Of a stretch of 40,925 nt of DNA, positions 5,211-37,742 are shown in pieces. Both the position numbers and the translations under genes were made by a program. The notes beneath the pieces were generated by a model. It saw nothing but the letters and a program-made list of their open reading frames with translations, did no database searches and had not been told where the DNA came from. Source of the DNA: a virus (Duplodnaviria > Heunggongvirae > Uroviricota > Caudoviricetes); IMG/VR virus record IMGVR_UViG_2671180437_000016, positions 1 to 40,925 of that record, one strand, 5' to 3'. Each line of letters opens with the position of its first letter. The first letter of the stretch is position 1.

Positions 5211-5225
5211 TTACCGTTGAGGTAA
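5211..5225. promoter_or_regulatory. Operator-like palindrome TTACC-GTTGA-GGTAA (OL-type site)
   Basis: Perfect TTACC-N5-GGTAA inverted repeat between repressor 3' end and early-left operon; preceded by tandem 13-bp repeats GTTACCTC(G/A)GTCT at 5184-5209. Confidence 0.6.
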
Positions 5226-5272
5226 TAATTATGCTTATTTGGTTTGGTGTCAATAGATATGAGTTAAAAAAA

Positions 5273-5287
5273 TTACCCGTAAGGTAA
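5273..5287. promoter_or_regulatory. Operator-like palindrome TTACC-CGTAA-GGTAA
   Basis: Perfect TTACC-N5-GGTAA; identical 15-mer recurs at 33500-33514. Confidence 0.6.
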
Positions 5288-5299
5288 TCTATCTGGCAA

Positions 5300-5322
5300 T
5301 AAAAAAGCCGCCATGAGGCGGC
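5300..5322 (-). terminator. Rho-independent terminator after repressor gene
   Basis: Stem GCCGCC/GGCGGC with ATGA loop; run of A on plus strand (U-run on minus) immediately 3' of repressor stop. Confidence 0.6.
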
Positions 5323-5344
5323 TTACTTACTGAAAAATATAGTT

Positions 5345-5929
5345 TTATTGTTTGCTTTTTTCGTTCTGGTTGATGACAAATTCAATGTAACTTTCGATCT
5401 TTGCTTTCTCGGTTTCGGGTAACAATGCGTAGCGCGAGCGGTCATAGTTGATAGTCGCAGGGTCGTGCGGGTGAATCAGTAATTCATAGCCGTGACGCCC
5501 GAATGCGGATGCAACATTCTCCAGGGTGGAAATGGAAACGCTGACCTCATTGTTTAACAGGCGACTGATTGTCACCTGGGCGACGCCGGATGCGCGGTGA
5601 AGTTTTCCCTGCGTTGAAAGGTCGCGGCTTTCGCTCATCCAGCGTTCCAGGTTGTGAGCCGCCAGCTGACCAATGTCGCTTGGGCCGACAGGCTGAAAAC
5701 CTTCCTGAGAAAGCGAGCGATCGATATCAAGCCAGTTACGGGGTTTATTGGCGGCAGCTTCAATTTTTCGCGCAACCTGGTCGCCGATAACCTTCTTGCC
5801 AAGAGCCCAGCGGTTTACCAGATTTGCCTGAGTTCCAAGTTTTTCTGCCATCCGCGTCTGAACACCATTGAATTCACGGTCGATCAAGTCGTTGAGATTT
5901 TGCCTGCGGACGTCCTGGATACTTTTCAT
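5345..5929 (-). CDS. Prophage repressor (CI-like, two HTH regions, no recognisable S24 autocleavage domain)
   Basis: 194 aa, divergent from Cro-like gene across an operator-rich spacer; HTH-like segments 'MAEKLGTQANLVNRWALGKK' and 'ASGVAQVTISRLLNNEVSVSISTLENVA'; no Ala-Gly/Ser...Lys peptidase motif seen. Confidence 0.7.
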   Translation of the reverse strand: MKSIQDVRRQNLNDLIDREFNGVQTRMAEKLGTQANLVNRWALGKKVIGDQVARKIEAAANKPRNWLDIDRSLSQEGFQPVGPSDIGQLAAHNLERWMSESRDLSTQGKLHRASGVAQVTISRLLNNEVSVSISTLENVASAFGRHGYELLIHPHDPATINYDRSRYALLPETEKAKIESYIEFVINQNEKSKQ

Positions 5930-5984
5930 TTTCTGGAAAATCGCCTCATATATGAATCAGTAGATGATTCAATTTAAAGCAATA

Positions 5985-6047
5985 TTACCCAACAGGTAAA
6001 TGCACCTCATAGGTAACTATCCTTGATTTTTGTTACCTTATGGGTGA
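5985..6047. promoter_or_regulatory. Immunity-region operator cluster (three TTACC-N5-GGTAA-type sites) with divergent promoters
   Basis: Sites at 5985-5999 (TTACCCAACAGGTAA), 6002-6016 (GCACCTCATAGGTAA), 6033-6047 (TTACCTTATGGGTGA) between repressor start (5929) and Cro-like start (6084). Confidence 0.65.
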
Positions 6048-6083
6048 ATATTTATTATCTGAAATAAATATCAGGCAATAGCT

Positions 6084-6314
6084 ATGAGCGATAACGGACA
6101 TTTCGATTTCAAAAAGCACTGGCTTGCACTTACTCCGGATGAGCGTGAAGCCTTCGCACAGGAAGCCGGAACGACGAGTCACTATATCCAGACTCACTTA
6201 ACAGGTAAGCGCAAGATGCCAGGTAAGGTATTGATGAATGGGCTTTTTAAAGCCTGTAAAACAAGACAATGGCTGCGCTCAAAAGCAGAACTGGCATACT
6301 TCTTCTACTCATGA
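6084..6314 (+). CDS. Cro-like HTH regulator
   Basis: 76 aa, divergent from repressor; 'EAFAQEAGTTSHYIQTHLTGKRKMPGKVL' resembles Cro/YdaS-type HTH. Confidence 0.65.
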   Translation: MSDNGHFDFKKHWLALTPDEREAFAQEAGTTSHYIQTHLTGKRKMPGKVLMNGLFKACKTRQWLRSKAELAYFFYS

Positions 6315-6336
6315 TATCCAGCTACAACCCTCTGTA

Positions 6337-6358
6337 GACCGCCACCCGGCGGTCTTTT
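6337..6358 (+). terminator. Rho-independent terminator after Cro-like gene
   Basis: Stem GACCGCC/GGCGGTC, loop ACCC, followed by TTTT. Confidence 0.6.
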
Positions 6359-6369
6359 CATATCTATTC

Positions 6370-6384
6370 GTACCTCAAAGGTAA
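6370..6384. promoter_or_regulatory. Operator-like palindrome GTACC-TCAAA-GGTAA
   Basis: One-mismatch member of the TTACC-N5-GGTAA family, followed by AACC-N6-GGTT inverted repeat and T-run (6390-6413). Confidence 0.5.
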
Positions 6385-6464
6385 TAAAAAACCAAATCTG
6401 GTTGATCTTTTTTTTGTGTCAGCACAAAATAACCGTAATCCCAATACTAATGACAGGGCTTACC

Positions 6465-6665
6465 ATGGAAATCATTACACGTATTGATGCCGCAAAGCGC
6501 GGACTTAAACGCTACTACACCGGAAAAACATGTAAGCACGGACATGACAGTGAACGCTGGGTTTACAACGGACACTGTGTTGAGTGCACCATGGAATCAA
6601 ACCGTCGCATCAGGGCAGAGATTAAGCAGATCATGATTAATTCCTCCCCACAACATTCAAGCTGA
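6465..6665 (+). CDS. Small Cys/His-rich (zinc-finger-like) protein in the cII position
   Basis: 66 aa from internal ATG of track ORF 6402..6665; 'CKHGHDSERWVYNGHCVEC'; function not recognisable. Confidence 0.4.
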   Translation: MEIITRIDAAKRGLKRYYTGKTCKHGHDSERWVYNGHCVECTMESNRRIRAEIKQIMINSSPQHSS

Positions 6666-6680
6666 TAGCGGAGATTAATC

Positions 6681-7496
6681 ATGAGCAGACATGCAACAGA
6701 TTGGGCCTGGGAGACAGATCCAGGTAGCTCGTCATTAAAGCTCATACTGCTCTCGATGGCTGACAGAGCCGATGAATATAACCTCTGCTACCCCAGCATA
6801 GAACGCCTCGTTAAAGACACTTGCCTGAATAAAAAAACCGTACAGGCCGGGCTTATATCGCTCATGAAAATGGGGCTTATTTCAGATACCGGAGAGAGAA
6901 AGGGTGCGACGAAAAGAGTGCGGGTTTTCTCTCTTAATATAACCAAAAACGGGAACATTAAAGGCAACCAGGAAGGGGAGAATGAACCCGAAAACGGTAA
7001 TGTTCCCGAAAACGGGAATATACCCAAAAACGGGATGTTGAATGATCCCAAAAACGGGATGTTGAATGATCCCAAAAACGGGATCCAGAACCAGTCATAT
7101 AACCAGTCATTTAACCAAGAGAGGGAGAGCAGGACAAAAACCGGGGATTCTGTGCCTCATGACCCCGGCGCAAACAACGCCGTGATGAATAACTTTGTTC
7201 CTCATGGTGGGCCAGGGCAATTAGGCAAATTTGTCATGCATGAACAATGGCAGCCATCAGATGACTTTCTTCGGAAAAGCTCATTGCAGGGAATCTACCT
7301 GGACAGTCTGCCAACGGCACAGGAACTTGCAGAGTTCAGAATTTACTGGATGGCTGAGGGTAAGGCATACCATCAGGCACAGTGGGAGCAGAAGCTGGCA
7401 AGGAGGCTGCAGATTAGCAGACAGAAGCAATCAACATTACCTGATAACAACGTTCCGCACTGGAACAGTCCTGAAGCATGGGAGGATTTCTTGTGA
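6681..7496 (+). CDS. Replication initiator (lambda O-like, N-terminal winged-helix) containing internal iterons
   Basis: 271 aa; N-terminal 'LKLILLSMADRADEYNLCYPSIERLVKDTCLNKKTVQAGLISLMKMGLIS'; repetitive 'ENGNVPENGNIPKNGMLNDPKNGMLNDPKNG' encoded by DNA direct repeats. Confidence 0.75.
   Translation: MSRHATDWAWETDPGSSSLKLILLSMADRADEYNLCYPSIERLVKDTCLNKKTVQAGLISLMKMGLISDTGERKGATKRVRVFSLNITKNGNIKGNQEGENEPENGNVPENGNIPKNGMLNDPKNGMLNDPKNGIQNQSYNQSFNQERESRTKTGDSVPHDPGANNAVMNNFVPHGGPGQLGKFVMHEQWQPSDDFLRKSSLQGIYLDSLPTAQELAEFRIYWMAEGKAYHQAQWEQKLARRLQISRQKQSTLPDNNVPHWNSPEAWEDFL
6987..7082. repeat. Iteron-like direct repeats (putative phage origin of replication) inside initiator gene
   Basis: Five copies of CCC(G/A)AAAACGG(G/T) starting at 6987, 7005, 7023, 7047, 7071; 24-bp unit CCCAAAAACGGGATGTTGAATGAT exactly duplicated; followed by AACCAGTCAT x2 (7089-7110). 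Confidence 0.65.
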
Positions 7497-8278
7497 ACAA
7501 CGTTTTTACCGCGATACAAAACCGTGACGGAGAAGCCCTTTCTCGCATGTCAGGTTATGAGCATCAGTACACCAACAATGACAACGTGGTGAACATGTCA
7601 GCAGAGAGGCTTGTTGATGCCCTTTTCAAACAGCTGAAACAACTGTTTCCGGCGGCAGTGGTAACCAACCTGAAGACGCCAGAGCAGGAAGTTGCTGCAA
7701 AACAGCAGTGGATTGCTGCGTTTGCCGAAGGGGGGATCCGAACCCGTGAACAGGTTTCTGCTGGTATGCGCCACGCCCGCGCCAGTGAATCTCCGTTCTG
7801 GCCGTCGCCAGGACAATTTATCAAGTGGTGCAAAGACAGCAAGATGGTTCTTGGCGTCACCATTGACGATGTGATGGCGGAGTTTCACCGGTACAGCAAG
7901 GAAAAAAGTTTATATCCTGGTGGTCCCGAAAGATTCCCGTGGCGACATCCGGTTATGTACTGGGTCGTATGTGATACCCGCCGTGCAATGTATCAGCGCC
8001 AGCTTAGCGAGATTGAGGTTGAGAAACACGCGCGCAGGCTGCTCGATGATTGGGCGAAAAAGGTGGCTTCCGGACAGCAGATACCCGATCCGGTGATCAG
8101 CATACAGGCAAAGCCAGAGCCCATGAGTACACCTCCGGACACAGGGAGAGACGTTTACCATCCACCAGGGCGAAGTTTCGGGTGCATGCCTAACGCCGCC
8201 ACCCTTGGGGGAATAACACCGGCGCAGTGGCTGATGGAGGAATACAGGCGGGGAAAGGCGGCAGGATTTATCAAGTAA
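7493..8278 (+). CDS. Replication protein P-like (helicase loader)
   Basis: Follows initiator gene; start taken at GTG 7493 (GGAGGA SD 6 nt upstream, GTGA overlap with initiator stop; ATG 7478 is the alternative); 'FWPSPGQFIKWC' segment reminiscent of lambda P family. Confidence 0.65.
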   Translation: MNNVFTAIQNRDGEALSRMSGYEHQYTNNDNVVNMSAERLVDALFKQLKQLFPAAVVTNLKTPEQEVAAKQQWIAAFAEGGIRTREQVSAGMRHARASESPFWPSPGQFIKWCKDSKMVLGVTIDDVMAEFHRYSKEKSLYPGGPERFPWRHPVMYWVVCDTRRAMYQRQLSEIEVEKHARRLLDDWAKKVASGQQIPDPVISIQAKPEPMSTPPDTGRDVYHPPGRSFGCMPNAATLGGITPAQWLMEEYRRGKAAGFIK

Positions 8279-8315
8279 TACCAGCGCGATAGCGCATTTT
8301 TTTACGCCTCGATAA

Positions 8316-8330
8316 TTACCTGACAGGTAA
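8316..8330. promoter_or_regulatory. Operator-like palindrome TTACC-TGACA-GGTAA
   Basis: Perfect TTACC-N5-GGTAA in spacer upstream of DUF1064 gene. Confidence 0.55.
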
Positions 8331-8377
8331 TAAAATATTCTAAAATCTATTGATTTCGTGTCTTATGTGGTTTTTAA

Positions 8378-8392
8378 TTACCTCAGAGGTAA
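8378..8392. promoter_or_regulatory. Operator-like palindrome TTACC-TCAGA-GGTAA overlapping ribosome-binding region
   Basis: Perfect site ending 4 nt before ATG at 8396. Confidence 0.55.
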
Positions 8393-8395
8393 ATC

Positions 8396-8740
8396 ATGAG
8401 AAAACAGATACAGGCTCTTGGTCGACTCAAAACAGGCCAGATGAACAAAACAGAATCTGCGTATTGCCAGCACCTTGAGCAGCGTAAACGTGCAGGGGAA
8501 ATCGCCTGGTATCGATTCGAGGGTATCAAGCTGCGGTTAGCTGACAACACGTTCTATACGCCCGATTTCGCTGTGATGCTCGCCACCGGAGAGATGGAAC
8601 TGCACGAAGTGAAAGGTTTCTGGACCGACGACGCCAGGGTGAAAACCAAAGTCGCCGCAGATCAGTATCCGTTCCGAATCATCGGGGTAACGGTTAAACC
8701 AAAGAAAGCAGGTGGTGGCTGGAACATCGAAGAGTTCTGA
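8396..8740 (+). CDS. DUF1064-like phage protein
   Basis: 114 aa; 'YTPDFAVMLATGEMELHEVKGFWTDDARVKTKV' resembles DUF1064 proteins common in phage replication/nin regions. Confidence 0.6.
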   Translation: MRKQIQALGRLKTGQMNKTESAYCQHLEQRKRAGEIAWYRFEGIKLRLADNTFYTPDFAVMLATGEMELHEVKGFWTDDARVKTKVAADQYPFRIIGVTVKPKKAGGGWNIEEF

Positions 8741-8801
8741 ATCGACGATCTTTTTAGTTATCAATGTAATCAATAAGTTATGTGGATAAGCGAGGGTAAA
8801 G

Positions 8802-9416
8802 ATGGAAAGTAATATCAAAGGGTTAGTTTCCGCCGGGCATGAGATGGCTTCGGAACTGAAAGCAGAATGTGGTGCCGTTGATATGCGCAGTGTGGCAAAG
8901 CTGATCAGCGATTTGGCAACGCAACTGGAAGTGCAACTGGTGCGTGCTAATGCGCTGGCCGAAGACCAACAGAAAGCGCTTGAGTCAATTAAGCAGGCTG
9001 ATGCGGCTGTTAAGTTGGCACACGAGAAGTTTTCAGCTCTGGCGGCGGAGAATGCGGGGCTTAAGGCCTTCAAAACCGCCGTTTATCAGCAGATGGGCGT
9101 TGGATGTGATGCTCCTGAATTCTCCATTACGGTAGGTTTGAGTAACTTACGTCGTTTTGCTGACACACTCCACGCCATTGAGCGTGAGTTCTTTACCAAA
9201 GAGCTACCTGATGAAGAGCACGAAGGCGAAACATTCAATGAATGTCCACTTAGCTGGGGAATGAGCGTCGAACAGTACGTTTCCGAGTTTCGCAAATGCC
9301 TGGCTGAAGTACGGGCGCAGGGCGTGGAGATGTTTGCGGAGTGTGCATACACACTTGAACATCATGATCACGCAGTTGCCTTCGCCGCTGAGCTTCGCAA
9401 AGGAGGCAACCAGTGA
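8802..9416 (+). CDS. Hypothetical phage protein
   Basis: 204-aa ORF with SD GAGGGTAAAG; no recognisable domain. Confidence 0.55.
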   Translation: MESNIKGLVSAGHEMASELKAECGAVDMRSVAKLISDLATQLEVQLVRANALAEDQQKALESIKQADAAVKLAHEKFSALAAENAGLKAFKTAVYQQMGVGCDAPEFSITVGLSNLRRFADTLHAIEREFFTKELPDEEHEGETFNECPLSWGMSVEQYVSEFRKCLAEVRAQGVEMFAECAYTLEHHDHAVAFAAELRKGGNQ

Positions 9417-10030: not shown

Positions 10031-10031
10031 T

Positions 10032-11617: not shown

Positions 11618-11958
11618 TGGACTATTCACAGTTAAGTGATTTTGAAATTAACAGAATGGTAGGAGACATAATTTTTAAAGGCCTTTGGGCATGTAAACCG
11701 GAAACATCAGGGAATAACACCAACAAATGGTATTACGGAAATGCTGATACAACTTTTGAGCCATTAACCCCTTTACCTGACTACTGCAATGATCCGATCG
11801 CTTCATGGCCGATTATTGAGAAATACAGGATTTCTATCTTAGACCAGTTAACTGAATGGTGTGTGGATGCAAAAGACGTAAGACCAATATTTGATACCAG
11901 ACCTCTCCGCGCCGCCATGATTGTATTTCTCATGATGCAGGAAAATCAGAATGGCTAA
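11617..11958 (+). CDS. Hypothetical phage protein
   Basis: 113 aa from ATG 11617 (overlaps upstream stop TGATG); internal start of track ORF 11470..11958. Confidence 0.55.
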
Positions 11959-12289
11959 ATCAGCAGCAGAGCGCAAAGCCGCTCAGAGAGCCAGACAAGC
12001 TGCATCTGGTGTGCGTAAGATGGAGATTGTGCTTGATGCTCAGGAAATTGAAATGCTAGAGCGTAACTGTGCCACGCGTCGCCCCGGGCGTGCGCCTTAC
12101 GAATTTGGTGAGTATATAGCGTCACTGATCCGCCAGGATGATGCACGCGTGCGCGGGCGTATAAAATCGATCAGCAGAAAACGTTGCGGTAAGTGCGGCG
12201 AGAGAGTTCCAGTTAATTCATGCCCGTGCAATGGTGACTCGCAATGCTGGGTGACTAAAGGCTGGCATGAAACGAAATTAATAGTGTGA
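11951..12289 (+). CDS. Basic Cys-rich small protein, candidate late-gene regulator
   Basis: 112 aa; '[17 protein letters not shown]' zinc-ribbon-like; last gene before terminator and packaging genes; function inferred from position only. Confidence 0.5.
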
Positions 12290-12298: not shown

Positions 12299-12338
12299 AG
12301 TAGATTATGCATGATGAATTTGATGTGTTTTGAATACT

Positions 12339-12364
12339 GCCGCCAACTATGGCGGCTTTATTTT
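12339..12364 (+). terminator. Rho-independent terminator upstream of terminase small subunit
   Basis: Stem GCCGCC/GGCGGC, loop AACTAT, followed by TTTATTTT. Confidence 0.6.
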
Positions 12365-12407
12365 GCATGGTACTATTACCACAACGGTAACTATTACCAC
12401 GGTGGTT

Positions 12408-13004
12408 ATGATGCCTGCTGAACCTAAAACCTATAAACGCAAATCAACGCAATTTAAGCCACTAACAGCAATGCAGGAGGCTTATTGCCAGTCATACATC
12501 AAAACGCCTGAAAACCAGACTCAGGCAGCGATTAACGCAGGATTCTCCCCAAATACAGCGGCAGTTAAAGCCAGTGTAATGATGCGCGATGAACGTATTC
12601 AAAAACGGATTGCCGAGTTGATGGAGGAGCGCAACAAACGAATGCGCGTCAGTGCTGATTACGTTCTCATGCGCCTGGTGGAGATCGACCAGATGGACGT
12701 GATCGACATCCTCAACGACGATGGGAGCCTTAAGCCAATCCGCGAGTGGCCGAAAATCTGGCGCACTACGCTTAGCGGCTTTGATCTGTCATCGACCATC
12801 ATGAACATGAACGAGGATTCGATAGAGACAATCCTCAAAAAAATTAAATGGCCTGACAAGGTGAAGAACCTCGAACTGATTGGTAAGCACGTCGACGTCA
12901 ACGCATTCAAAGAACGCTTGGATGTTAATGTGAATGTGACAATTGCTGATCGCATAGCAGCAGCCAGGAAGCGACTCAAAGAACGTCAGGATGGCAATCA
13001 GTGA
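12408..13004 (+). CDS. Terminase small subunit
   Basis: Start at MMPAEPK (ATG 12408, GGTGG SD); the track ORF start at 12330 would read through the terminator hairpin; directly precedes and overlaps large terminase. Confidence 0.6.
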   Translation: MMPAEPKTYKRKSTQFKPLTAMQEAYCQSYIKTPENQTQAAINAGFSPNTAAVKASVMMRDERIQKRIAELMEERNKRMRVSADYVLMRLVEIDQMDVIDILNDDGSLKPIREWPKIWRTTLSGFDLSSTIMNMNEDSIETILKKIKWPDKVKNLELIGKHVDVNAFKERLDVNVNVTIADRIAAARKRLKERQDGNQ

Positions 13005-14476: not shown

Positions 14477-14477
14477 T

Positions 14478-15218
14478 TTATTGCTTATTTTTCACGGCTT
14501 CAGCAATCATTCTCTCAGCCTGTGATGTATATGTTTTTCGCAAGGGTTCATGGCCCATATGCAATACGATACTTTCCTTTTCTTTTTCCTTTAATTCTTG
14601 TATGAGATTATTTATTTTGGCCTCCCTATCTTCAAGCATTCTGGCGGACTTTTCTGCCTCAATCTTTAACGCTGCAGCCACTGATTGCATGTTTTCCAGC
14701 TTCTTATTCAATTCCAAAACCTTATCGGAGAGCCTATCTCTTTCCGACGTTAGCTCACCCATCCTGGCCTGTGACTCCGTAATTCTTTCCTTCATAGCCT
14801 GTATGTCTTTTTCGGCGCCAGTCTTAACTTTGTCGTATGTCACATCGTGCTTTGCCTTCAGGCGCTGCAGGCGTGTGGCGCGATGAATGCGCTTGGCCTT
14901 CCGGTGGTTCTCTATCGAATCGTAATTATCAAGAGGTTTGGCTTGCCACTTTGAAATCACGTTGTTGATCCAGGGCATGCCGCCGCACAGGATTATTGCT
15001 GAAACACATGGGAATGCTAATACCGTTTTCCAACTGCTATTGCTGGAAATGTAGGTGATCTTGTCGATGATGCTGGAGTCGCTGAGGAGTAAGTATAAAA
15101 TCGACTTCCAGTTAAAGGCGCACCATGACAGTGCGAACGCTCCAAACACTGGATTTCTGACCCTTTGCGAAGCGGTATTAACGGTTGAAGATAGGTATTC
15201 TTTAAGTGATTCAAGCAT
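14478..15218 (-). CDS. Moron: predicted membrane-anchored coiled-coil protein of unknown function
   Basis: 246 aa on opposite strand inside structural region; visibly AT-rich; two hydrophobic segments ('VFGAFALSWCAFNW', 'VLAFPCVSAIILCGG') then long charged coiled-coil-like tail; own operator site upstream. Confidence 0.6.
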   Translation of the reverse strand: MLESLKEYLSSTVNTASQRVRNPVFGAFALSWCAFNWKSILYLLLSDSSIIDKITYISSNSSWKTVLAFPCVSAIILCGGMPWINNVISKWQAKPLDNYDSIENHRKAKRIHRATRLQRLKAKHDVTYDKVKTGAEKDIQAMKERITESQARMGELTSERDRLSDKVLELNKKLENMQSVAAALKIEAEKSARMLEDREAKINNLIQELKEKEKESIVLHMGHEPLRKTYTSQAERMIAEAVKNKQ

Positions 15219-15248
15219 GTCCAGGCCCTTTTAGGTTTTTTTCTGATT

Positions 15249-15263
15249 CTACCTTTAAGGTAA
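15249..15263. promoter_or_regulatory. Operator-like palindrome CTACC-TTTAA-GGTAA upstream of moron
   Basis: One-mismatch family member 31-45 nt upstream of moron start codon. Confidence 0.5.
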
Positions 15264-15360
15264 TCTTCGGTCATTATGAAAAACGTATCCCTATGAGGGG
15301 ATAATGTCGTTGATATCCTCTGATGAGGATAAAACAAAGCCAGCTTATCGGCTGGCTGTT

Positions 15361-15374
15361 TGTGACGTGTCACG
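15361..15374. promoter_or_regulatory. 14-bp near-palindrome TGTGACGTGTCACG (copy 2, one substitution)
   Basis: Differs from 12285-12298 by a single central A to G change. Confidence 0.45.
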
Positions 15375-15416
15375 ACATTAAAATCCATCGAATTCGTATT
15401 TCATGATTCACACCTT

Positions 15417-15603: not shown

Positions 15604-15680
15604 TGGCGTGGCATGCAGGATTCGAACCTGCGACCAACCGCTTAGAAGGCGGTTGCTCTGTCCAACTGAGCTAATGCCAC
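15604..15680 (-). tRNA. tRNA-Arg (anticodon UCU)
   Basis: 77-nt cloverleaf read on minus strand: acceptor GTGGCAT/ATGCCAC, D-arm GCTC...GAGC, anticodon stem ACCGC/GCGGT with loop CTTCTAA (anticodon TCT), T-arm GCAGG-TTCGAAT-CCTGC, discriminator G + CCA. Confidence 0.85.
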
Positions 15681-16002: not shown

Positions 16003-16017
16003 TTACCTGAAAGGTAA
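16003..16017. promoter_or_regulatory. Operator-like palindrome TTACC-TGAAA-GGTAA upstream of portal operon
   Basis: Perfect site; followed at 16060 by CATATGTGGTTAAA motif. Confidence 0.55.
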
Positions 16018-19013: not shown

Positions 19014-20000
19014 ATGGCTGTTAAAGGCTTAACTGCGCTAACGCTGGCTGACTGGGGTAAGCGCGTCGATCCAAACGGGAAAGTCGATAAGATTATCGAG
19101 CTTCTCGGTCAAACTAACCCGATCCTTCAGGATATGCCTTTTGTCGAAGGGAACCTTCCTACCGGACACCGAACCACCATTCGTTCTGGTTTACCTTCAG
19201 CTACCTGGCGTTTGCTGAACTATGGCGTACAGCCAAGCAAATCAACCACAGTGCAGGTAACCGATTCCGTTGGCATGCTGGAAACCTATGCTGAAGTCGA
19301 TAAGTCACTGGCTGATCTGAACGGCAATACCGCCGAATTCCGCCTGTCTGAAGACCGCGCATTTATTGAAGCGATGAATCAGCAGATGGCGCAGACGCTG
19401 TTTTATGGTGATTCCAGCGTTAACCCTCAGCAGTTTATGGGACTGTCCTCCCGCTATTCCAGCCTGTCTGCGGGTAATGCTCAGAACATCATTGATGCTG
19501 GTGGCACGGGTACAGATAACACCTCTATCTGGTTAGTGGTGTGGGGCGAAAACACCGTGCATGGCATCTTCCCGAAAGGGCAGAAGGCTGGCATCCAGAT
19601 GGAAGATAAAGGCCAGGTGACACTGGAAGATGCGAATGGCGGCAAGTACGAAGGCTACCGTACCCATTACAAATGGGACAACGGGCTTGCTCTGCGTGAC
19701 TGGCGTTATGTTGTTCGCATTGCAAACATCGATGTCAGCAATCTTTCAGAACCTTCCTCTGCCGCAAATATTGCGAAGTTGATGGTTAAAGCACTGCATC
19801 GCATTCCAAACCGTGGCATGGGTCGCCCGGTGTTCTACATGAACCGCACTGTAGGCCAGGCTCTTGATCTGCAATCTCTGGAGAAAACATCTCTGGCGAT
19901 CAGCGTAAAAGAGACAGAAGGCGAGTGGTGGACGTCATTCCGTGGTGTACCAATCCGTGAAACTGATGCGCTTCTGGAAACAGAAGCCCGCGTGGTGTAA
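19014..20000 (+). CDS. Major capsid protein
   Basis: About 328 aa; strong SD AGAGGAA 6 nt upstream of ATG 19014; position after scaffold; stem-loop GTGGGTC/GACCCAC at 20016-20035 follows. Confidence 0.8.
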   Translation: MAVKGLTALTLADWGKRVDPNGKVDKIIELLGQTNPILQDMPFVEGNLPTGHRTTIRSGLPSATWRLLNYGVQPSKSTTVQVTDSVGMLETYAEVDKSLADLNGNTAEFRLSEDRAFIEAMNQQMAQTLFYGDSSVNPQQFMGLSSRYSSLSAGNAQNIIDAGGTGTDNTSIWLVVWGENTVHGIFPKGQKAGIQMEDKGQVTLEDANGGKYEGYRTHYKWDNGLALRDWRYVVRIANIDVSNLSEPSSAANIAKLMVKALHRIPNRGMGRPVFYMNRTVGQALDLQSLEKTSLAISVKETEGEWWTSFRGVPIRETDALLETEARVV

Positions 20001-32086: not shown

Positions 32087-32095
32087 GGAACAACA

Positions 32096-32509
32096 ATGAA
32101 GGAATTATTGCTGTTATCGGTATTTTTGATATCCGCTTGCTCGACATCCTATGATGTTTATGACGGTGTTGATAAGGCATATTGCGACAAAGTTAAAATG
32201 GATTTTTCTCTTGCCAAGACGGCGAAGGATAGTTGTATTGATCACTACGTCAAGACTTATACCAAGCCAGCATCATCGGCATCTGATATTGCTGAAGGTG
32301 CTGTGTTTGAGTGTAACAAGGTGATATCCATCGCAGCGAGTTCTTCATACGATGCTGCTGTATGTGCAATGGCTGAAAGAAACGGCATGTCAGTGCAAAA
32401 AGTTAATAGCATGATAAACAGTAATGACGAAGCCAAAATAAGAACTGATATCAGCTCGGTGAAAAAAGATGCCATGAACAGAGTTGTAAAATATCAGTCA
32501 TCTTTATAA
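32096..32509 (+). CDS. Predicted lipoprotein (cargo; candidate superinfection-exclusion factor)
   Basis: 137 aa; signal peptide with lipobox 'LISAC'; SD AAGGAA; immediately after ejection-protein genes; followed by palindrome and terminator. Confidence 0.6.
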   Translation: MKELLLLSVFLISACSTSYDVYDGVDKAYCDKVKMDFSLAKTAKDSCIDHYVKTYTKPASSASDIAEGAVFECNKVISIAASSSYDAAVCAMAERNGMSVQKVNSMINSNDEAKIRTDISSVKKDAMNRVVKYQSSL

Positions 32510-32511
32510 GT

Positions 32512-32525
32512 CGTGACATGTCACA
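32512..32525. promoter_or_regulatory. 14-bp near-palindrome CGTGACATGTCACA (copy 3, inverted relative to copy 1)
   Basis: Exact reverse complement of 12285-12298; core 32513-32524. Confidence 0.5.
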
Positions 32526-32549
32526 GGCCGCAAAAGCGGCCTTGTTTTT
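32526..32549 (+). terminator. Rho-independent terminator after lipoprotein gene
   Basis: Stem GGCCGC/GCGGCC, loop AAAA, followed by TTGTTTTT. Confidence 0.6.
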
Positions 32550-32709
32550 AACGAATGCCACCGCCGCCAGGGCGGGAATCTGCAGAACGCCCACCGCAGC
32601 GGGAGCCGTCAGCGGCAGTATCGCTGTCGTGCTGGCAACGACCGGCAAAGGCCTGAGTTGAAGCTACCAGAGACAACAAAACGAACAGTGCAGCAAATGC
32701 TTTTTTCAT
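32548..32709 (-). CDS. Small secreted Cys-containing peptide (53 aa precursor), hypothetical
   Basis: Internal ATG (32709) of 77-aa track ORF; 'MKKAFAALFVLLSLVASTQAFA' signal peptide then about 31-aa Gly/Arg/Asp-rich region with two Cys; weak SD. Confidence 0.3.
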   Translation of the reverse strand: MKKAFAALFVLLSLVASTQAFAGRCQHDSDTAADGSRCGGRSADSRPGGGGIR

Positions 32710-32781
32710 TGTGAAATTTCCATCTATAAGCCACCTCAATGTGGCGTCAATGAGTGTAGCACTGACTTTTGTTTCGTCCAC

Positions 32782-32802
32782 AAAAAAGCCCGCGTTGCGG
32801 GC
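32782..32802 (-). terminator. Rho-independent terminator after orphan gene
   Basis: Stem GCCCGC/GCGGGC with plus-strand A-run (minus-strand U-run) immediately 3' of stop at 32808. Confidence 0.55.
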
Positions 32803-32807
32803 TTCTA

Positions 32808-33440
32808 TTAATGCAGTTTATCTTTGCTTATAACCAGTAGTCTGTGGGTATGCACATCTTTATCACTGCCCCAACAGAAATCAGCCCACTGGCTATAGAA
32901 ATCATCCCATGATGTCATGAAGCTAAGAGGTCTATCTTCTTCAGAGCCATCTGAAACGTATACATTATATCCTGGGGTGTTTATAGCCCAAGAAATCATT
33001 CTTTCCCAGAATCTTCTCCCATCGATTGTTTGTTGCTCATCAGATACAACGATCGCATATTGCTCTAGGAAGAACTGAAAAAAAATCTGAGGCAAACCAT
33101 GAACAGCACGGTCATGAATAACATTAGGCGTACGCCATACCATGATCTGCGTACATGTTCTTTTGGCTTCGACGATATCTTCCCGAAAGATTAACTTAAC
33201 CGCATACACCGTTTCTGGAGTATCGCTGGTAGTAATCATTCTGTAATGATCGCCATTACAAGATTTTACAAGGCGATAACCATAAGGTGTTGTGAATCCC
33301 GGAAGAACGAAATCAACCACACCTTTCGCTAAGTAGCTTTCGGTGTGACTAGTGTTCTTCTCAGACATGTTCAGTTTTCTGTCGAAATCTGCTTCTGGGA
33401 TAATGTATGGCATCGCTTTTCTTGTTGTATTTGTTTTCAT
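32808..33440 (-). CDS. Orphan cargo protein of unknown function (210 aa)
   Basis: Strong SD GGGAGGA; AT-rich gene with own operator (33500-33514) and own terminator; no motif recognised. Confidence 0.6.
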   Translation of the reverse strand: MKTNTTRKAMPYIIPEADFDRKLNMSEKNTSHTESYLAKGVVDFVLPGFTTPYGYRLVKSCNGDHYRMITTSDTPETVYAVKLIFREDIVEAKRTCTQIMVWRTPNVIHDRAVHGLPQIFFQFFLEQYAIVVSDEQQTIDGRRFWERMISWAINTPGYNVYVSDGSEEDRPLSFMTSWDDFYSQWADFCWGSDKDVHTHRLLVISKDKLH

Positions 33441-33499
33441 TTCGTCCTCCCATGTTTGGCTACAGGACGCGTTTTGAAGGGAAGATTAAAAACGCTTTC

Positions 33500-33514
33500 T
33501 TACCCGTAAGGTAA
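33500..33514. promoter_or_regulatory. Operator-like palindrome TTACC-CGTAA-GGTAA
   Basis: Identical 15-mer to 5273-5287; about 60 nt upstream of orphan gene start. Confidence 0.55.
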
Positions 33515-33580
33515 TATTACGCGAATCTACATCACATCGCCAATGATTATTTTAAAGGCACATCCCTGTGCCGCCGCCCG

Positions 33581-34267
33581 TCAGAAGAACCCTGCTTTGT
33601 CGTTGATATACTCCGCGTGGGTCTGGATATCACGCAGGCATTTGCTCACACCGACGATGTAGCAGAACATGGTGGTCAGCTCCGCCGCCGCGCCCGATAC
33701 GTCGTGCCCGTCTTCCTGTAACTGGTTCAGCAGATTCATCAGCAGTGAGTTCTCCGTCAGGCCGAGAACACCAGACGGCGAGTGAATCAGACTGCGGTAG
33801 CCGGGCTTTAGTGGGGCGCTGTAGGTTTTGTTCTCTATCTTCATTGCCTGCATCACTGCTGATGCTGTGGCGTTGGCTACCTGGTCGGCAACCATCTTTA
33901 TGCGTTCTTCTTGCGGGAGCGAGTTTTTAATGTAACTTCCGGTGCGGCGGATCTGAGGAAGAACCTCACCTGTAACCCATTTACGAAAGCGGTATGGGAT
34001 AGTGCCTGGTGTCACCGCATCGCGGCAGCGGAGGATCAGTGTGTAGAGGCCTGACTCGTTGATAATATTGGTTTCGCCTTGACGGCCTAAGTTAAATTTA
34101 GCCCTTTCATCATCATCAAGAGATTTTATTGACATAGTGGGGTTTGTCAGTTGAAGAGCTTTAATAACGTCTTTGGCAACAAACCAAGGATTTCCATCAA
34201 TAACAATGGCTCGAATGGTTGCTTCTGATTCAAAATGAAAAACAGATGGGGTTACGTTAGCAGTCAT
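33581..34267 (-). CDS. Antirepressor (BRO-N domain N-terminus, Ant-like C-terminus)
   Basis: Start at MTANVTPSVF (ATG 34267, SD AAAGGTGA); 'VFHFESEATIRAIVIDGNPWFVAKDVIKALQ' is a BRO-N signature; C-terminus homologous to 35413..35670 product. Confidence 0.7.
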   Translation of the reverse strand: MTANVTPSVFHFESEATIRAIVIDGNPWFVAKDVIKALQLTNPTMSIKSLDDDERAKFNLGRQGETNIINESGLYTLILRCRDAVTPGTIPYRFRKWVTGEVLPQIRRTGSYIKNSLPQEERIKMVADQVANATASAVMQAMKIENKTYSAPLKPGYRSLIHSPSGVLGLTENSLLMNLLNQLQEDGHDVSGAAAELTTMFCYIVGVSKCLRDIQTHAEYINDKAGFF

Positions 34268-34533
34268 AGTGATCACCTTTGTAGTTAGGTTAATCACCAC
34301 TACCGACGCCAATCGGTTGGTGGTGAACTGTGCAGGGTTGGCGTAACCGGCTACAAAGGACCCGGCGCACCTTTCGGTGCCCCCACACAGCCCACCATAG
34401 AATAGGTGCGCTTTACACATAAAAAAACCGCTTATGCGGCATATGTGCCCCTGTAGTAATCCGGGACGCCAATCCCGGCACTGGATTTTGCCAGTACCCG
34501 ATTACTATGGCACAAGAGGAGTGCAATGTAAAT

Positions 34534-34548
34534 TTACCGCAAAGGTAA
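34534..34548. promoter_or_regulatory. Operator-like palindrome TTACC-GCAAA-GGTAA
   Basis: Perfect site in 394-bp divergent spacer; followed by CAACC-N6-GGTTG inverted repeat (34575-34590). Confidence 0.55.
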
Positions 34549-34626
34549 TGATAAACGCGAAGAAATATTAAAATCAACCGTATTTGGTTGATTGCGTTTA
34601 ACGCTTGATCACCTGAAAGCAAGATA

Positions 34627-34641
34627 TTACCTTTAAGGTAA
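34627..34641. promoter_or_regulatory. Operator-like palindrome TTACC-TTTAA-GGTAA
   Basis: Perfect site 20 nt upstream of ATG 34662. Confidence 0.55.
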
Positions 34642-34661
34642 TGTTATTGTGAGGAAAAGCA

Positions 34662-35390
34662 ATGGAAGTTTTCTGGATAGTTGTTGGTGTGGTTGCGGTG
34701 ATTATTTACGTTATCAACCAGAACAAGACTAAGATCTCTGATCGTACGGTCGTTAATCATAACAAAACGATAAAGACCGAAGATGGGGAGATAACGATTA
34801 ATCGTACACAGGTTATAGAACACACCTCTACTCAGTTTCAAAAAACTGGAGGTAATGCGCCTAATATTTCCGCACCTCCTGCTTATGATAGTGCGGTAAT
34901 CCAGACATATTATAAACAGCAGGAGTTAGCAAAAGAGAGGCAACTGATTCAGCCAAAGCCGTTTACAGCTGAGCTTCCACCTGGAGTGTCAACGCGTCCG
35001 GCATATCATGGAAGATTCCCTGGTGATGACATATCGTCTCAGTCATCTAAAAAAGCACCTCAGGCAGTATCAGAGCCAGCAAGAATACCTTCTGTATCGC
35101 CGCCAAAAGAAGAATCAGCTAACAGAGTTTCAAGTGGTAGCAAGCAGTGCTTGCGATGCAGAATAAACCTACCATATGAAAAATTCAGGAAATCGTCAAA
35201 AAATCCAGATGGATTGACTAAGTGGTGTGCAAGGTGTCTCGATGGCCCAAAGAATACACGCCATATGAAGTGGTGCCCAATTTGTAATGTCCGCAGAAAA
35301 CGAACAAGCTTTTACCCTAATAATCAAAATGCGGATGGCTTAATGGCATGGTGCAAAACGTGCTGGGACGAGCACAAAGCGAAACGATAG
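34662..35390 (+). CDS. Membrane-anchored protein with four C-terminal CxxC motifs (zinc-ribbon-like), unknown function
   Basis: 242 aa; N-terminal TM helix 'VFWIVVGVVAVIIYVI'; C-terminal 'CLRC','WCARC','WCPIC','WCKTC' with internal repeat 'DGL(T/M)(K/A)WC'; SD GAGGAA. Confidence 0.6.
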   Translation: MEVFWIVVGVVAVIIYVINQNKTKISDRTVVNHNKTIKTEDGEITINRTQVIEHTSTQFQKTGGNAPNISAPPAYDSAVIQTYYKQQELAKERQLIQPKPFTAELPPGVSTRPAYHGRFPGDDISSQSSKKAPQAVSEPARIPSVSPPKEESANRVSSGSKQCLRCRINLPYEKFRKSSKNPDGLTKWCARCLDGPKNTRHMKWCPICNVRRKRTSFYPNNQNADGLMAWCKTCWDEHKAKR

Positions 35391-35414
35391 GCCGCTCTTG
35401 CGGCCTTTAAATTT
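35390..35414. terminator. Bidirectional terminator between convergent genes
   Basis: Stem GGCCGC/GCGGCC, loop TCTT, followed by TTTAAATTT. Confidence 0.5.
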
Positions 35415-35670
35415 ACCGGGTTTGTTTTCGTAATTGTTCGGCACAATAGTCGAGATGTGTTTGCAGATCCTGCATAGACATCTGTGAGCTGGTGACATAG
35501 TTAATCAGTGCAGTCAGTTCGGCAAGTGGGCCATCGACATTAAATCCATCCTTATCGAGATCCCGGAGTAATTTCATCAAGTGCGATCCCTCCACCAGTG
35601 ACCTGACGCCTCCCGGCGTGTGAATCCTTTCGGTAAATCCGTCTTCCAGTGGATAGTGATACTGCTGCAT
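35413..35670 (-). CDS. Small antirepressor-like protein under a LexA box (candidate SOS-induced antirepressor)
   Basis: 85 aa from ATG 35670 (SD GGAGAAG; track ORF uses TTG at 35688); 'RIHTPGGVRSLVEGSHLMKLLRDLDKDGFNVDGPLAELTALINYV...DLQTH' aligns with C-terminus of 33581..34267 product; LexA box 20 nt upstream. Confidence 0.6.
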   Translation of the reverse strand: MQQYHYPLEDGFTERIHTPGGVRSLVEGSHLMKLLRDLDKDGFNVDGPLAELTALINYVTSSQMSMQDLQTHLDYCAEQLRKQTR

Positions 35671-35689
35671 CTTATCTTCTCCATGCAAT

Positions 35690-35709
35690 AACTGTATATT
35701 TATACAGTA
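35690..35709. promoter_or_regulatory. LexA (SOS) box AACTGTATATTTATACAGTA
   Basis: CTGT-N8-ACAG with AT-rich spacer, 18/20 match to E. coli consensus TACTGTATATATATACAGTA; only such site found in the window. Confidence 0.75.
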
Positions 35710-35744
35710 TCAAATAATTTGTTTGCTATCCAGCACGTTTTGCA

Positions 35745-35759
35745 AATTACCCGAAAGGT
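35745..35759. promoter_or_regulatory. Operator-like palindrome TTACC-CGAAA-GGTAA upstream of tail fibre gene
   Basis: Perfect site; followed at 35793 by CATATGTGGTTTTT motif. Confidence 0.55.
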
Positions 35760-35865
35760 AATATCTATTCGTATTCACAGTCTTTCTATCCATATGTGGT
35801 TTTTCAGGTAATAAAATAACCAGATATGCGGCGCAACGGGTGCTGCGACTATCTGGAGATTTAAC

Positions 35866-37626
35866 ATGACGGTCTCAACCGAAGTTGACCACAACGAATA
35901 CACCGGTAACGGTGTTACAACGACATTCCCTTATACCTTCAGGATTTTCCAGAAATCTGATTTAGTAGTGCAGGTTGTTGACCTGAACGAGAACATCACA
36001 GAGCTGATTCTTGATACTGATTACATAGTCACTGGTGCGGGAGGGTATAACGGCGGCAATGTAATTCTGTCGAAGGCGTTGGTTAACGGTTATCAGATTT
36101 CTATATCAAGAGAGCTACCGGTTACGCAGGATACCGATCTGCGCAACCAGGGTAAGTTCTTCGCTGAGGTGCATGAGGACGCGTTTGATAAGCTAACGAT
36201 GCTGATCCAGCAGGTTCGCAGTTGGTTTGCCTTGGCGCTGCGCAAGCCATCAACCATCGCTAACTGGTACGACGCGCTGGGGAATTACATTCGCAACCTG
36301 CGCGACCCACGAGACCCGCAGGATGCTGCCACTAAAAATTATGTAGACACGATTAGTAACAACAACTATCTACACACGTTAAGGGTTCCAGAATCATTTA
36401 CGCGGCAACTCCCTCCTGCTGCAGAACGTGCAAATATGATCCATGCATATGATTATGCAGGTGAGTCCATTATGGTCTTGCCTGAGAGCGGTAGTGCAGC
36501 AGATGTTCTGTTATTGCTGGCGCAACCTGACGGGCTTAAGAGGATTGGCACAAAAGTTAATTACGGTATACCGGTTGGATCTACTTTAACCGATGGCGTC
36601 ACTTTTTCTTTTGATAAGGATAAAGGTTGGCTGAGAATTGGTGGTGCCGATCTCCTACCACTTGACGATGAAAAGAACTTCTGGAGAGGCTTGCCTACAC
36701 CGAGAAATTCATGGTGTAACCCGGCTCTTATCGGTGATTACTCAGTATCTTTTAACAGAAACGGTGCGTCATTCGCGGTATACACCACAACTTTCGGGCA
36801 TGACTGCGTTACGTATGGCGTGGCATCTATTGCCGGTGGTGCTGGTTCTGCTACTGGCGACCCAGATCAAATTACCTCACCAAATGCTGAAGGGTACTGC
36901 TCTTTTGCATTTGGGAAAAATGTCATTGCTCTTGGCGCAAAATCTGCCGCATTCTGTGAAGAAACGGAAGCGCTTTCAAGGGCGGCTTTTACAACAGGTT
37001 ATTTTACGCAAGCCAGACCGGGATACACTACAGACCCCGGCGGGGTTGCAAGTGATGGCATTGGTGCGGCAGCCATTGGATATCGAACTCGCGCGGCAGG
37101 AGATGGCTCTTTTGCTGTAGGTAAGAATATTCAGGCTTATGGTGGTTCGATTGCGATAGGGAGCGGCACTAATGACGATAAGCCAGCAATCAATCCACAT
37201 AAAGACTCAGTGATGCTTTTTGCAGAATCGCTTATTCCAGGTATTGCCGTCGTCCCTGGTGGTGGTTCGCTGACGCGTGTAGGGGTGCACACAAAATATC
37301 CTAAAGAAATTTTGGAAGTAGTTTTAGAGGATGGGGGTCGCGCAGCTATCAGAATACCAGGGGTAGGAACTGGAAGGATCTTGCTACAAGGGACAGATCA
37401 CAACGGCAATGCACTTTCTATTGCGTCGCTTGAATGGATAAGCGGAAACGAAGGTAGTGCTGTTGGTTCGTTGAAAATAAACATGAACAACGACGCACCA
37501 TGCATTGAATTTCTGGAAGATGGCAAGGTGGTTTTGAAGAACGTAAAAACGCTTGAGGAGATAAACGGCGCCACCGCGGGCACCATCTATAAGGATGCTT
37601 CAAATTTCCTTAAAATTGTTGTTTAA
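35866..37626 (+). CDS. Tail fibre / tailspike protein
   Basis: 586 aa; N-terminal 'EYTGNGVTTTFPYTF' is typical of podovirus tail-fibre particle-binding domains; Gly-rich C-terminal region. Confidence 0.75.
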   Translation: MTVSTEVDHNEYTGNGVTTTFPYTFRIFQKSDLVVQVVDLNENITELILDTDYIVTGAGGYNGGNVILSKALVNGYQISISRELPVTQDTDLRNQGKFFAEVHEDAFDKLTMLIQQVRSWFALALRKPSTIANWYDALGNYIRNLRDPRDPQDAATKNYVDTISNNNYLHTLRVPESFTRQLPPAAERANMIHAYDYAGESIMVLPESGSAADVLLLLAQPDGLKRIGTKVNYGIPVGSTLTDGVTFSFDKDKGWLRIGGADLLPLDDEKNFWRGLPTPRNSWCNPALIGDYSVSFNRNGASFAVYTTTFGHDCVTYGVASIAGGAGSATGDPDQITSPNAEGYCSFAFGKNVIALGAKSAAFCEETEALSRAAFTTGYFTQARPGYTTDPGGVASDGIGAAAIGYRTRAAGDGSFAVGKNIQAYGGSIAIGSGTNDDKPAINPHKDSVMLFAESLIPGIAVVPGGGSLTRVGVHTKYPKEILEVVLEDGGRAAIRIPGVGTGRILLQGTDHNGNALSIASLEWISGNEGSAVGSLKINMNNDAPCIEFLEDGKVVLKNVKTLEEINGATAGTIYKDASNFLKIVV

Positions 37627-37727
37627 GAGAAGTCATCGCCAAGGAATGCAGCGAGAAAACGCAAATATTGTATGTTGGCTATCATGCCCTAACTCTAATT
37701 TTAAATGACACAAGGATATTTATGATA

Positions 37728-37742
37728 TCACCTTTAAGGTAA
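37728..37742. promoter_or_regulatory. Operator-like palindrome TCACC-TTTAA-GGTAA upstream of lysis cassette
   Basis: One-mismatch family member; followed at 37776 by ACATATGGTTTATT motif. Confidence 0.5.

Follow-up and report, generated by a model that had tools for sequence, protein, structure and literature searches.

The 40,925-bp stretch analysed here (IMG/VR record IMGVR_UViG_2671180437_000016, positions 1 to 40,925), which as a whole is referred to as the window, is a Uetakevirus prophage that shows 97-98% identity over shared regions to phiV10, PAS61, phiv142-3 and TL-2011b. Its genes follow the order integrase, leftward recombination genes, the repressor gene rep, a divergent cro-like gene, replication genes, the DUF1064 operon, a small regulator gene (11951..12289), terS, terL, an accessory region with a tRNA-Arg gene, the portal-to-tail operon, a second accessory region, the antirepressor gene ant, the divergent tailspike gene and the lysis cassette. 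Copies of the palindromic motif TTACC-N5-GGTAA are placed before nearly every transcription unit of this prophage. It is proposed here that 16-17 copies, in the extended form (A)TTACC-N5-GGTAA(T), act as operators of the predicted prophage master repressor Rep (5345..5929), a reading for which we estimate a probability of about 0.85.

Copies of the motif, their placement and their conservation

Eleven perfect copies of TTACCNNNNNGGTAA (i.e., TTACC-N5-GGTAA) are present in the window, and the number rises to 16 if up to one mismatch is allowed, whereas dinucleotide-preserving shuffles of the window contain on average 0.04 (maximum 1) and 0.56 (maximum 3) copies, respectively. The perfect copies start at 5211, 5273, 5985, 8316, 8378, 12376, 16003, 33500, 34534, 34627 and 35747, and those with one mismatch at 6033 (GGTGA), 6370 (GTACC), 12394 (GGTTA), 15249 (CTACC) and 37728 (TCACC). 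The ACC-N5-GGT core is unchanged in all 16 copies and the extended consensus reads a-TTACC-YNWAA-GGTAA-t. In a curated gene map, which combines the list of open reading frames (ORFs) with the annotation of close relatives, non-coding DNA makes up 7.8% of the window and holds 16 of the 16 copies, for which the probability by chance is about 0.078^16. Two-mismatch matches lie nearly all within coding sequence, as expected of chance matches, and the motif with the shorter spacing, TTACC-N4-GGTAA, occurs in the window only at chance level. The initial annotation had described TTACC-N5-GGTAA as a dispersed family with all copies intergenic, and both statements hold, the over-representation in the window-wide count against shuffled controls being strong. 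Its list of sites was correct in the remaining coordinates; it had overlooked the perfect copy at 12376 and the copy at 12394, the site given as 35745 is located at 35747, and the copy at 6002, listed as perfect or with a single mismatch, carries two mismatches (GCACC...GGTAA).

Two gene calls bear on the intergenic placement. The mechanically derived ORF 12330..13004, which begins with TTG, contains the copies 12376 and 12394. However, terS most likely begins, as in epsilon15, with the in-frame ATG at 12408, which leaves both copies outside the gene and upstream of it. The phiV10 record places the start of terS further upstream, thereby including both operators in its coding sequence. The second case is the minus-strand ORF 15017..15388, which overlaps operator 15249. 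It shows no similarity to phiV10p03, holds terminator-like hairpins and is probably spurious, i.e., not a gene.

The distances between neighbouring operators are regular. Measured from centre to centre they amount to 31 bp (6002-6033), 62 bp (5211-5273 and 8316-8378) and 93 bp (34534-34627), which are whole multiples of approximately three helical turns, while close pairs are 17-18 bp apart. The spacings of 62-63 bp and of 93 bp were found again in relatives.

Moreover, the motif is over-represented to a similar degree in seven other phages despite Rep identities of only 43-78%. At up to one mismatch there are 15 sites in epsilon15, 14 in phiV10, 14 in TL-2011b, 18 in SPC32H, 11 in PAS61, 15 in the Enterobacter phage Tyrion and 13 in the Klebsiella phage BUCT711. 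The orthologous set comprises a site before int (outside the window), the pair at the leftward early promoter PL, two or three sites at the right operator region (OR), the pair before the DUF1064/RusA operon, two sites before terS and one site each before the gp3/portal operon, between ant and the tailspike gene, and before the lysis genes, where the TCACC...GGTAA variant is usually found across the genus.

For the sister phage epsilon15, the database record (AY150271.2 / NC_004775.2) contains seven 'protein_bind' features labelled 'repressor / lysogeny' (12-27, 2931-2947, 19895-19911, 32479-32494, 32554-32570, 32616-32632 and 35906-35922), and 7 of the 7 correspond to TTACC-N5-GGTAA. Since this annotation covers dispersed sites before terS, the portal operon, the tailspike gene and the RusA operon, the idea of dispersed operators is not new for the genus, although the record leaves the OR sites, the lysis site and the second site of the RusA pair unannotated. 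A full-text literature search for the motif string gave no match. The annotated sites of epsilon15 and the characterised repressor of SPC32H are therefore what is already known for the genus; the present analysis adds the full phiV10-type site list, the conserved 62-bp module, the lineage-specific accessory operators and the contrast between N4 and N5 spacing described below.

Table 1. Predicted operators and associated genes and RNAs of the window (operators named by the first position of the motif).
Feature	Position	Strand	Remarks
OL proximal operator	5211..5225		perfect; adjoins the -10 and covers the start site of leftward early promoter PL
OL distal operator	5273..5287		perfect; its centre 62 bp from that of 5211; 19 bp before the -35 of PL
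Rep, putative master repressor	5345..5929	-	full-length homologue of SPC32H Rep (PDB 5D50)
OR operator nearest rep	5985..5999		perfect; overlaps the -35 of a candidate rep promoter
OR middle operator, degenerate	6002..6016		GCACC...GGTAA, two mismatches; 17 bp from 5985
OR operator	6033..6047		one mismatch; overlaps candidate rightward promoter PR of the cro-like gene
cro-like small repressor	6084..6314	+	phrog_35 'transcriptional repressor'
Operator before replication genes	6370..6384		one mismatch (GTACC); after the cro terminator (6336-6355)
DUF1064 promoter module	8316..8392	+	operators 8316-8330 and 8378-8392, 62 bp apart
terS operator pair	12376..12408 region		12376 perfect, 12394 one mismatch, 18 bp apart; between terminator 12339-12356 and terS start 12408
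Operator of accessory gene 14478..15218	15249..15263		one mismatch (CTACC); inside spacer and -10 of minus-strand ATGACC-17-TAGAAT, which drives the gene
tRNA-Arg (anticodon TCT)	15604-15680	-	in the terL-portal accessory region; SPC32H likewise
Portal operon operator	16003..16017		perfect; upstream of the gp3/portal late operon; orthologous to epsilon15 2931-2947, annotated as repressor site
Operator of accessory gene 32808..33440	33500..33514		perfect; adjoins the -10 of leftward TTGGCG-18-TAATAT; gene is phrog_1349, unknown function
C4 antisense RNA (RF01695)	34316-34402	-	79.5 bits (Rfam gathering score)
isrK Hfq-binding RNA (RF01394)	34421-34497	-	73.5 bits (Rfam gathering score)
isrK/C4/Bro-N operator	34534..34548		perfect; at promoters of the leftward isrK / C4-RNA / Bro-N antirepressor (P1 immI-like) module
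Operator before gene 34662..35390	34627..34641		perfect, fully palindromic ATTACCTTTAAGGTAAT; 20 bp upstream of this rightward gene; 93 bp from 34534
Small antirepressor Ant, SPC32H-type	35413..35707 incl. LexA box; ATG ~35670	-	88% identity to SPC32H Ant
LexA box	35692-35707		perfect, CTGTATATTTATACAG; directly upstream of ant
ant/tailspike operator	35747..35761		perfect; divergent region between ant (leftward) and the tailspike gene (rightward)
Lysis operator	37728..37742		one mismatch (TCACC); upstream of the lysis cassette; variant also in phiV10, SPC32H and Tyrion

Arrangement of the sites at the transcription units

In the immunity region, the sites are closely linked to predicted promoters (Table 1). 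PL, located on the minus strand, reads TTGACA (5253-5248)-17-AATTAT (5230-5225), and the last T of its -10 element is the first T of the TTACC of operator 5211. The spacing of 62-63 bp of the PL pair is kept in epsilon15, SPC32H, Tyrion, phiV10, TL-2011b, PAS61 and the Klebsiella phage BUCT711. For PR there are two candidates, TTGTTA-17-TATTAT (6030-6058) and TTGATT-17-GAATAT (6023-6051), and depending on the choice operator 6033 is placed in the spacer or across the -35. The site behind the cro terminator, 6370, has orthologous sites in phiV10 (33112) and Tyrion (35365).

The DUF1064 promoter module has the same layout as PL. Its operators flank TTGATT (8350-8355)-17-TTTAAT (8373-8378), by which the module drives the DUF1064 operon. 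When ten PL and DUF1064/RusA promoter regions, taken from five genomes, are aligned, they share the arrangement ATTACC-N5-GGTAAT, 19 bp, TTGAC(A/T), 17 bp and (A/T)TTAT directly followed by TACC-N5-GGTAA, in which the proximal operator again begins with the last T of the -10 and the two operators are spaced by 62-63 bp. Judged by this alignment, the PL and the DUF1064 promoter modules are paralogous and the DUF1064 module is conserved genus-wide. In both modules, the right arm of the proximal operator (5211 and 8378) supplies the Shine-Dalgarno sequence GAGG. The PL leader (5185-5225) additionally holds three direct repeats with a 13-bp period (TTACCTCGGTCTG / TTACCTCAGTCTG / TTACCGTTGAGGTAA), which on the transcribed strand read GAGGTAAC, a Shine-Dalgarno-like half-site. 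The window differs here from epsilon15 and SPC32H, as these carry a third full PL-proximal operator where the window has the 13-bp half-site repeats; likewise, the middle OR site is degenerate in the window, whereas its equivalent is perfect in epsilon15 (33358) and SPC32H (34407).

At the terS operator pair, no convincing promoter was seen between the terminator 12339-12356 and terS. Among all the sites, this pair is the best candidate for a roadblock to read-through ('stoperator-like'), and it is the only one at which a roadblock seems likelier than promoter occlusion. The pair is orthologous in phiV10, epsilon15, Tyrion, TL-2011b and PAS61, and its epsilon15 counterpart at 12-27 is among the annotated repressor sites. 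Directly before the terminator and terS lies the small regulator 11951-12289 (phrog_536, 'transcriptional regulator'), which is homologous to epsilon15 gp49 and which, being encoded at the position that Q occupies in lambda, is a candidate for a late-gene activator or antiterminator.

Compared to epsilon15 and SPC32H, the window has extra operators at accessory modules, namely 15249, 33500, 34534 and 34627. The site 34534 belongs to a cassette that resembles P1 immI and the isrK locus of Gifsy-1, in which the isrK and C4 RNAs precede the ORF of the Bro-N antirepressor. From the promoter TTTACA-17-CATAGT, transcription is predicted to begin at ~34497, where the isrK match has its 5' end. The mechanically derived ORF 33581..34420 reaches into the isrK/C4 RNA genes and is therefore over-extended. 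Stx phages share the RNA part at ~78% identity, and the Stx phage PA28 shares the RNAs and the gene start. However, the region upstream of isrK/C4 in PA28 is unrelated in sequence and without a motif copy, so that neither this promoter nor this operator is shared and the operator-bearing isrK promoter is lineage-specific. The imported modules thus appear, from their flanking sequence, to have been wired into the Rep regulon. The gene 34662..35390 behind operator 34627 was also considered as an antirepressor gene and rejected, since PHROGs assigns its product to phrog_6762, of unknown function, with a Zn-ribbon/endonuclease-VII-like tail.

The late-unit operators 16003, 35747 and 37728 precede the first gene of their respective units by 90-105 bp. 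Operator 35747 has orthologues in epsilon15 (19895-19911, annotated as a repressor site) and in SPC32H (20013). Downstream of the portal, tailspike and lysis operators, at a distance of 40-55 bp, the 11-mer CATATGTGGTT is present, with TAATAA, TGATAA or TATGAT 7 nt behind it in these three late units; the DUF1064 promoter has the 11-mer in its spacer as well. Its positions are 8362, 16059, 35791, 35818 (minus strand) and 37772 (minus strand) in the window, 2988, 24751 and 35953 in epsilon15, and 3231 and 24829 in SPC32H; exact and one-mismatch copies stand at equivalent late-unit positions in epsilon15, SPC32H and PAS61. CATATGTGGTT-N7-TAWNAW is therewith a candidate for a late-promoter or activator element. 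As a second motif family CATATGTGGTT was rejected, being not significant window-wide at two mismatches.

Rep and other candidate readers of the sites

Rep aligns over residues 1-190 with the SPC32H Rep structure (PDB 5D50; E 3.5e-42) and comprises an N-terminal DNA-binding domain, a middle helix-turn-helix (HTH)-like dimerisation domain and a C-terminal domain for tetramerisation and Ant binding. It is ~99.5% identical to the repressors of phiV10 and ZX5, while it is only ~43% identical to the Salmonella (epsilon15/SPC32H) repressors. A Peptidase_S24 domain was not found in Rep, the matches being confined to XRE-type HTH models and PDB 5D50. According to a paper that cites the SPC32H work, the Rep protein of SPC32H is tetrameric, binds palindromic DNA with pairs of DNA-binding domains formed across dimers, and is taken apart by the small tetrameric antirepressor Ant (PMC9638917). 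In a second paper, its C-terminal domain is described as having a p53-like fold that serves tetramerisation and is associated with DNA looping (PMC9986798). For the near-identical phage ZX5, whose repressor is 99.5% identical to Rep of the window, it was shown that repressor overexpression cut endolysin and holin transcripts by >99.9% (PMC9782041).

In the alignment of the DNA-binding domains, N36 and R40 (within the ...QANLVNRW... stretch) are unchanged throughout the genus and in the cI proteins of Pseudomonas phages, and this stretch forms the putative recognition helix. The invariance of these residues across the genus would explain the conservation of the operator arms.

The Pseudomonas proteins provide a test of the connection between protein and site. 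Searches by tblastn with Rep gave one match outside the genus, the cI protein of the Pseudomonas phage PseuP_224. This protein matches the Rep DNA-binding domain with its first 70 residues (39% identity, E 1e-12) and has a Peptidase_S24 domain at its C-terminus. A word-indexed protein search with the 73-aa Rep DNA-binding domain retrieved nothing more distant than truncated, nearly identical proteins. PseuP_224 carries three copies of TTACC-N4-GGTAA in the spacer between its repressor and cro genes and two more just beyond the repressor gene. In its 43-kb lambda-like genome, which also encodes a Q-type antiterminator for the late genes, the motif is confined to OR and OL (the left operator region), with four copies at up to one mismatch versus 0.26 expected in this one whole genome. 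A scan of IMG/VR, which was informative with the Pseudomonas domain placed first in the query alignment (an earlier query returned only loci with 99-100% identity), yielded 19 Pseudomonas phage contigs with PseuP-type repressors, in which the DNA-binding domain, 53-96% identical, is fused to an S24 peptidase. All 19 have TTACC-N4-GGTAA ~70 and ~30 bp upstream of the cI gene, and all except one truncated locus (L095) have two N4 copies beyond the cI gene as well, whereas the enterobacterial Rep-type loci in the same scan show the N5 spacing. By these comparisons, the half-site goes with the DNA-binding domain whatever the host or the phage backbone, and the length of the spacer goes with the oligomerisation module. 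That the half-site tracks the DNA-binding domain argues strongly for Rep as the reader of the sites. In the initial annotation it was suggested that one protein, most simply the prophage repressor, serves the many transcription units, and this is supported by these in-silico tests.

Several observations weigh against this reading or at least against its simplest form. Hits to the sigma-70 consensus in the operator regions are no commoner than in shuffled sequence, and the promoter calls given above consequently rest on conserved geometry. Several operators are located in divergent regions, leaving ambiguous which promoter is regulated, and at 34534 and 35747 the operator is closely followed by a -35, a position from which a protein could activate instead of repress. 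The centres of the portal, tailspike and lysis operators are ~65-80 bp upstream of the best candidate late promoter. Because of this position at about -65 to -80, simple occlusion fails to explain the silencing of the late units; looping to a nearby half-site, a block to read-through, or the control of divergent leftward promoters are possible instead. Operator 16003 also overlaps a leftward candidate promoter, TTGACA-17-TACCTT, aimed at the tRNA-Arg gene, and candidates for leftward targets are this gene, ant (35747) and, in sister phages, the serotype-conversion genes beside the lysis site. Finally, the cro-like protein, with its weak similarity to the Rep HTH, may share the Rep operators.

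The last point can be extended to a reading in which the cro-like protein (6084..6314) reads the dispersed sites mainly or in addition to Rep, turning early and accessory units down in lytic growth. The protein belongs to a repressor class (phrog_35), its gene has the cro position beside OR, and it weakly resembles the HTH of the DNA-binding domain of Rep (27% over 41 aa, E 0.004). This similarity is marginal, however, and the link between half-site and protein in the Pseudomonas phages was established for the Rep/cI domain and not for Cro. We regard this reading as possible but clearly less probable than Rep; moreover, it would complement Rep binding and not replace it. In lambda, Cro shares its operators with CI.

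That the palindrome is a promoter or activator element for late and accessory units, as an example a site for the gp49-like regulator 11951..12289, is improbable. The sites have -10-like flanks (GGTAATAAT), several are located just upstream of a -35, and a dedicated regulator gene (phrog_536) stands right before terS. However, the same motif builds OR and OL, where it overlaps the -10 and the start site of strong promoters, which fits repression, and with CATATGTGGTT there is a separate conserved motif that is the better candidate for a late promoter.

It is even less probable that the reader of the sites is a transcription factor shared by the enterobacterial hosts, which might be considered since the identical motif occurs in phages of E. 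coli, Salmonella, Enterobacter and Klebsiella though their repressors are only 43-78% identical. The half-site, in its N4 form, is also present at OR and OL of Pseudomonas phages that share only the N-terminal domain of the repressor, and its tracking of this domain also speaks strongly against a host factor. Furthermore, textbook OR and OL arrangements surround the repressor gene, and the invariant putative recognition-helix residues account for the conservation of the arms. At a comparably low level of probability, the palindromes might act as RNA hairpins that terminate transcription, guide RNase III or mask the Shine-Dalgarno sequence, as each site can fold a 5-7 bp hairpin, GAGG lies in the right arm at 8378 and 5211, and for some of these spacers RNase III sites are predicted in the epsilon15 record. 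This hairpin or terminator reading was rejected in view of the weak folding energies (mostly -3.3 to -5.5 kcal/mol) of AU-rich stems lacking a U-tract and of variants (TCACC...GGTAA, GTACC, GGTGA, GGTAT) that break the pairing and yet are conserved between phages. In addition, >100 instances in eight genomes keep the arm sequence, no compensatory change was seen among them, and many sites precede the likely start sites and would be untranscribed in the relevant direction.

Proposed switch and comparison with known repressor systems

We infer Rep binding, its occupancy in vivo and the mechanism of repression at each site from sequence. In the lysogen, Rep, a predicted non-cleavable repressor of the SPC32H type, would occupy the lambda-like OR cluster (5985, 6002 and 6033) and thereby control the divergent promoters of rep and the cro-like gene, as well as the two early-promoter modules at PL (5211/5273) and at the DUF1064 promoter (8316/8378). 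It would moreover occupy the single or double operators before the replication genes, terS, the accessory gene behind terL, the portal operon and two accessory genes, and those before the isrK/C4/Bro-N module, in the divergent ant/tailspike region and before the lysis cassette. Rep might occlude PL, PR and the promoters of the DUF1064 operon and of the accessory genes, and at terS it could form a roadblock. As Rep, Ant and the LexA box are all present, the window holds a complete switch of the SPC32H type. Induction would proceed as in SPC32H, i.e., DNA damage would remove LexA from the box at 35692-35707, the small Ant would be made, and Ant would dismantle the Rep tetramer, releasing all units together.

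A more far-reaching model can be drawn from the p53-like 'TetDloop' tetramerisation domain and the two pairs of DNA-binding domains of the Rep tetramer. The tetramer would clamp the two operators of each 62-bp module into a tight, in-phase micro-loop around the promoter and, by contacts between tetramers, would bridge the dozen single operators. The whole prophage, with its late, lysis and recently gained accessory modules, would thus form a multi-loop silenced complex that a small LexA-controlled antirepressor releases in one step. We consider this model speculative and rather doubtful. As a corollary, one TTACC-reading domain may have been joined to two oligomerisation modules, resulting in the N4 arrangement confined to OR/OL in the lambda-like Pseudomonas phages and in the genome-wide N5 arrangement in the Uetakeviruses.

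By all defining features that were examined in its sequence, the window is a member of the Rep regulon of epsilon15 and SPC32H (Rep/Ant structures PDB 5D50 and 5D4Z): the motif is the same, the positions are orthologous, Rep is homologous over its full length, and the small Ant and the LexA box are also present. The finding reveals no new kind of system.

The initial annotation had drawn an analogy to the C1 operators of P1 and to mycobacteriophage stoperators, which is justified for the function but not for the sites, which are symmetric, nor for the protein, which is of a different family. In P1, the C1 repressor reads asymmetric 17-mers as a monomer, and its dispersed operators include Op51 of the immI (c4-icd-ant) operon. 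The window resembles this system in having over a dozen scattered operators serving many units, including a C4-RNA/antirepressor operon (here behind 34534), and this likeness is functional only. The sites of the window are symmetric 15-17-mers, their predicted reader is an XRE-type HTH dimer of dimers, and the operators are unrelated in sequence to those of P1. The stoperators of Cluster A mycobacteriophages such as L5 and Bxb1 are asymmetric 13-mers that are oriented with transcription and act on elongation. Like these, the window has many sites in short intergenic gaps, also before structural genes, and the terS pair stands after a terminator; unlike these, most of its sites abut -10-like elements or lie within promoters, and as the sites are palindromic no orientation can be defined for them. 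With symmetric sites and an unrelated XRE-type HTH tetramer as the putative reader, the window is a member of neither the P1 C1 nor the stoperator family.

Lambda-type immunity is resembled in the multipartite OR (5985/6002/6033) between the divergent repressor and cro genes and in the presence of an OL (5211/5273). In contrast to it, eleven further sites lie outside OR and OL, and Rep is without an S24 domain, having a LexA-controlled antirepressor in place of self-cleavage. PseuP_224 cI shares with Rep the half-site, the N-terminal domain, a tripartite OR and an OL pair, but has the N4 in place of the N5 spacing, and its Peptidase_S24 domain implies RecA-mediated self-cleavage where Rep has dimerisation and tetramerisation domains.

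The analysis provides a full map of candidate repressor sites for the phiV10-like prophages of pathogenic E. coli (O157, O103, O146 and others). Throughout the genus, one non-cleavable repressor together with one SOS-controlled antirepressor appears to govern genes for serotype conversion, lysis and structure as well as accessory genes. The map might be used for predicting induction, for engineering phiV10-based reporter phages and for recognising how imports of the isrK/C4/Bro-N type join a resident regulon. The candidates for antirepressors in the window are the small Ant (35413..35670) and the product of the Bro-N gene behind the C4 RNA, and the prophage accordingly carries two different antirepressor modules, one with a LexA box and one in the Bro-N/C4 cassette.

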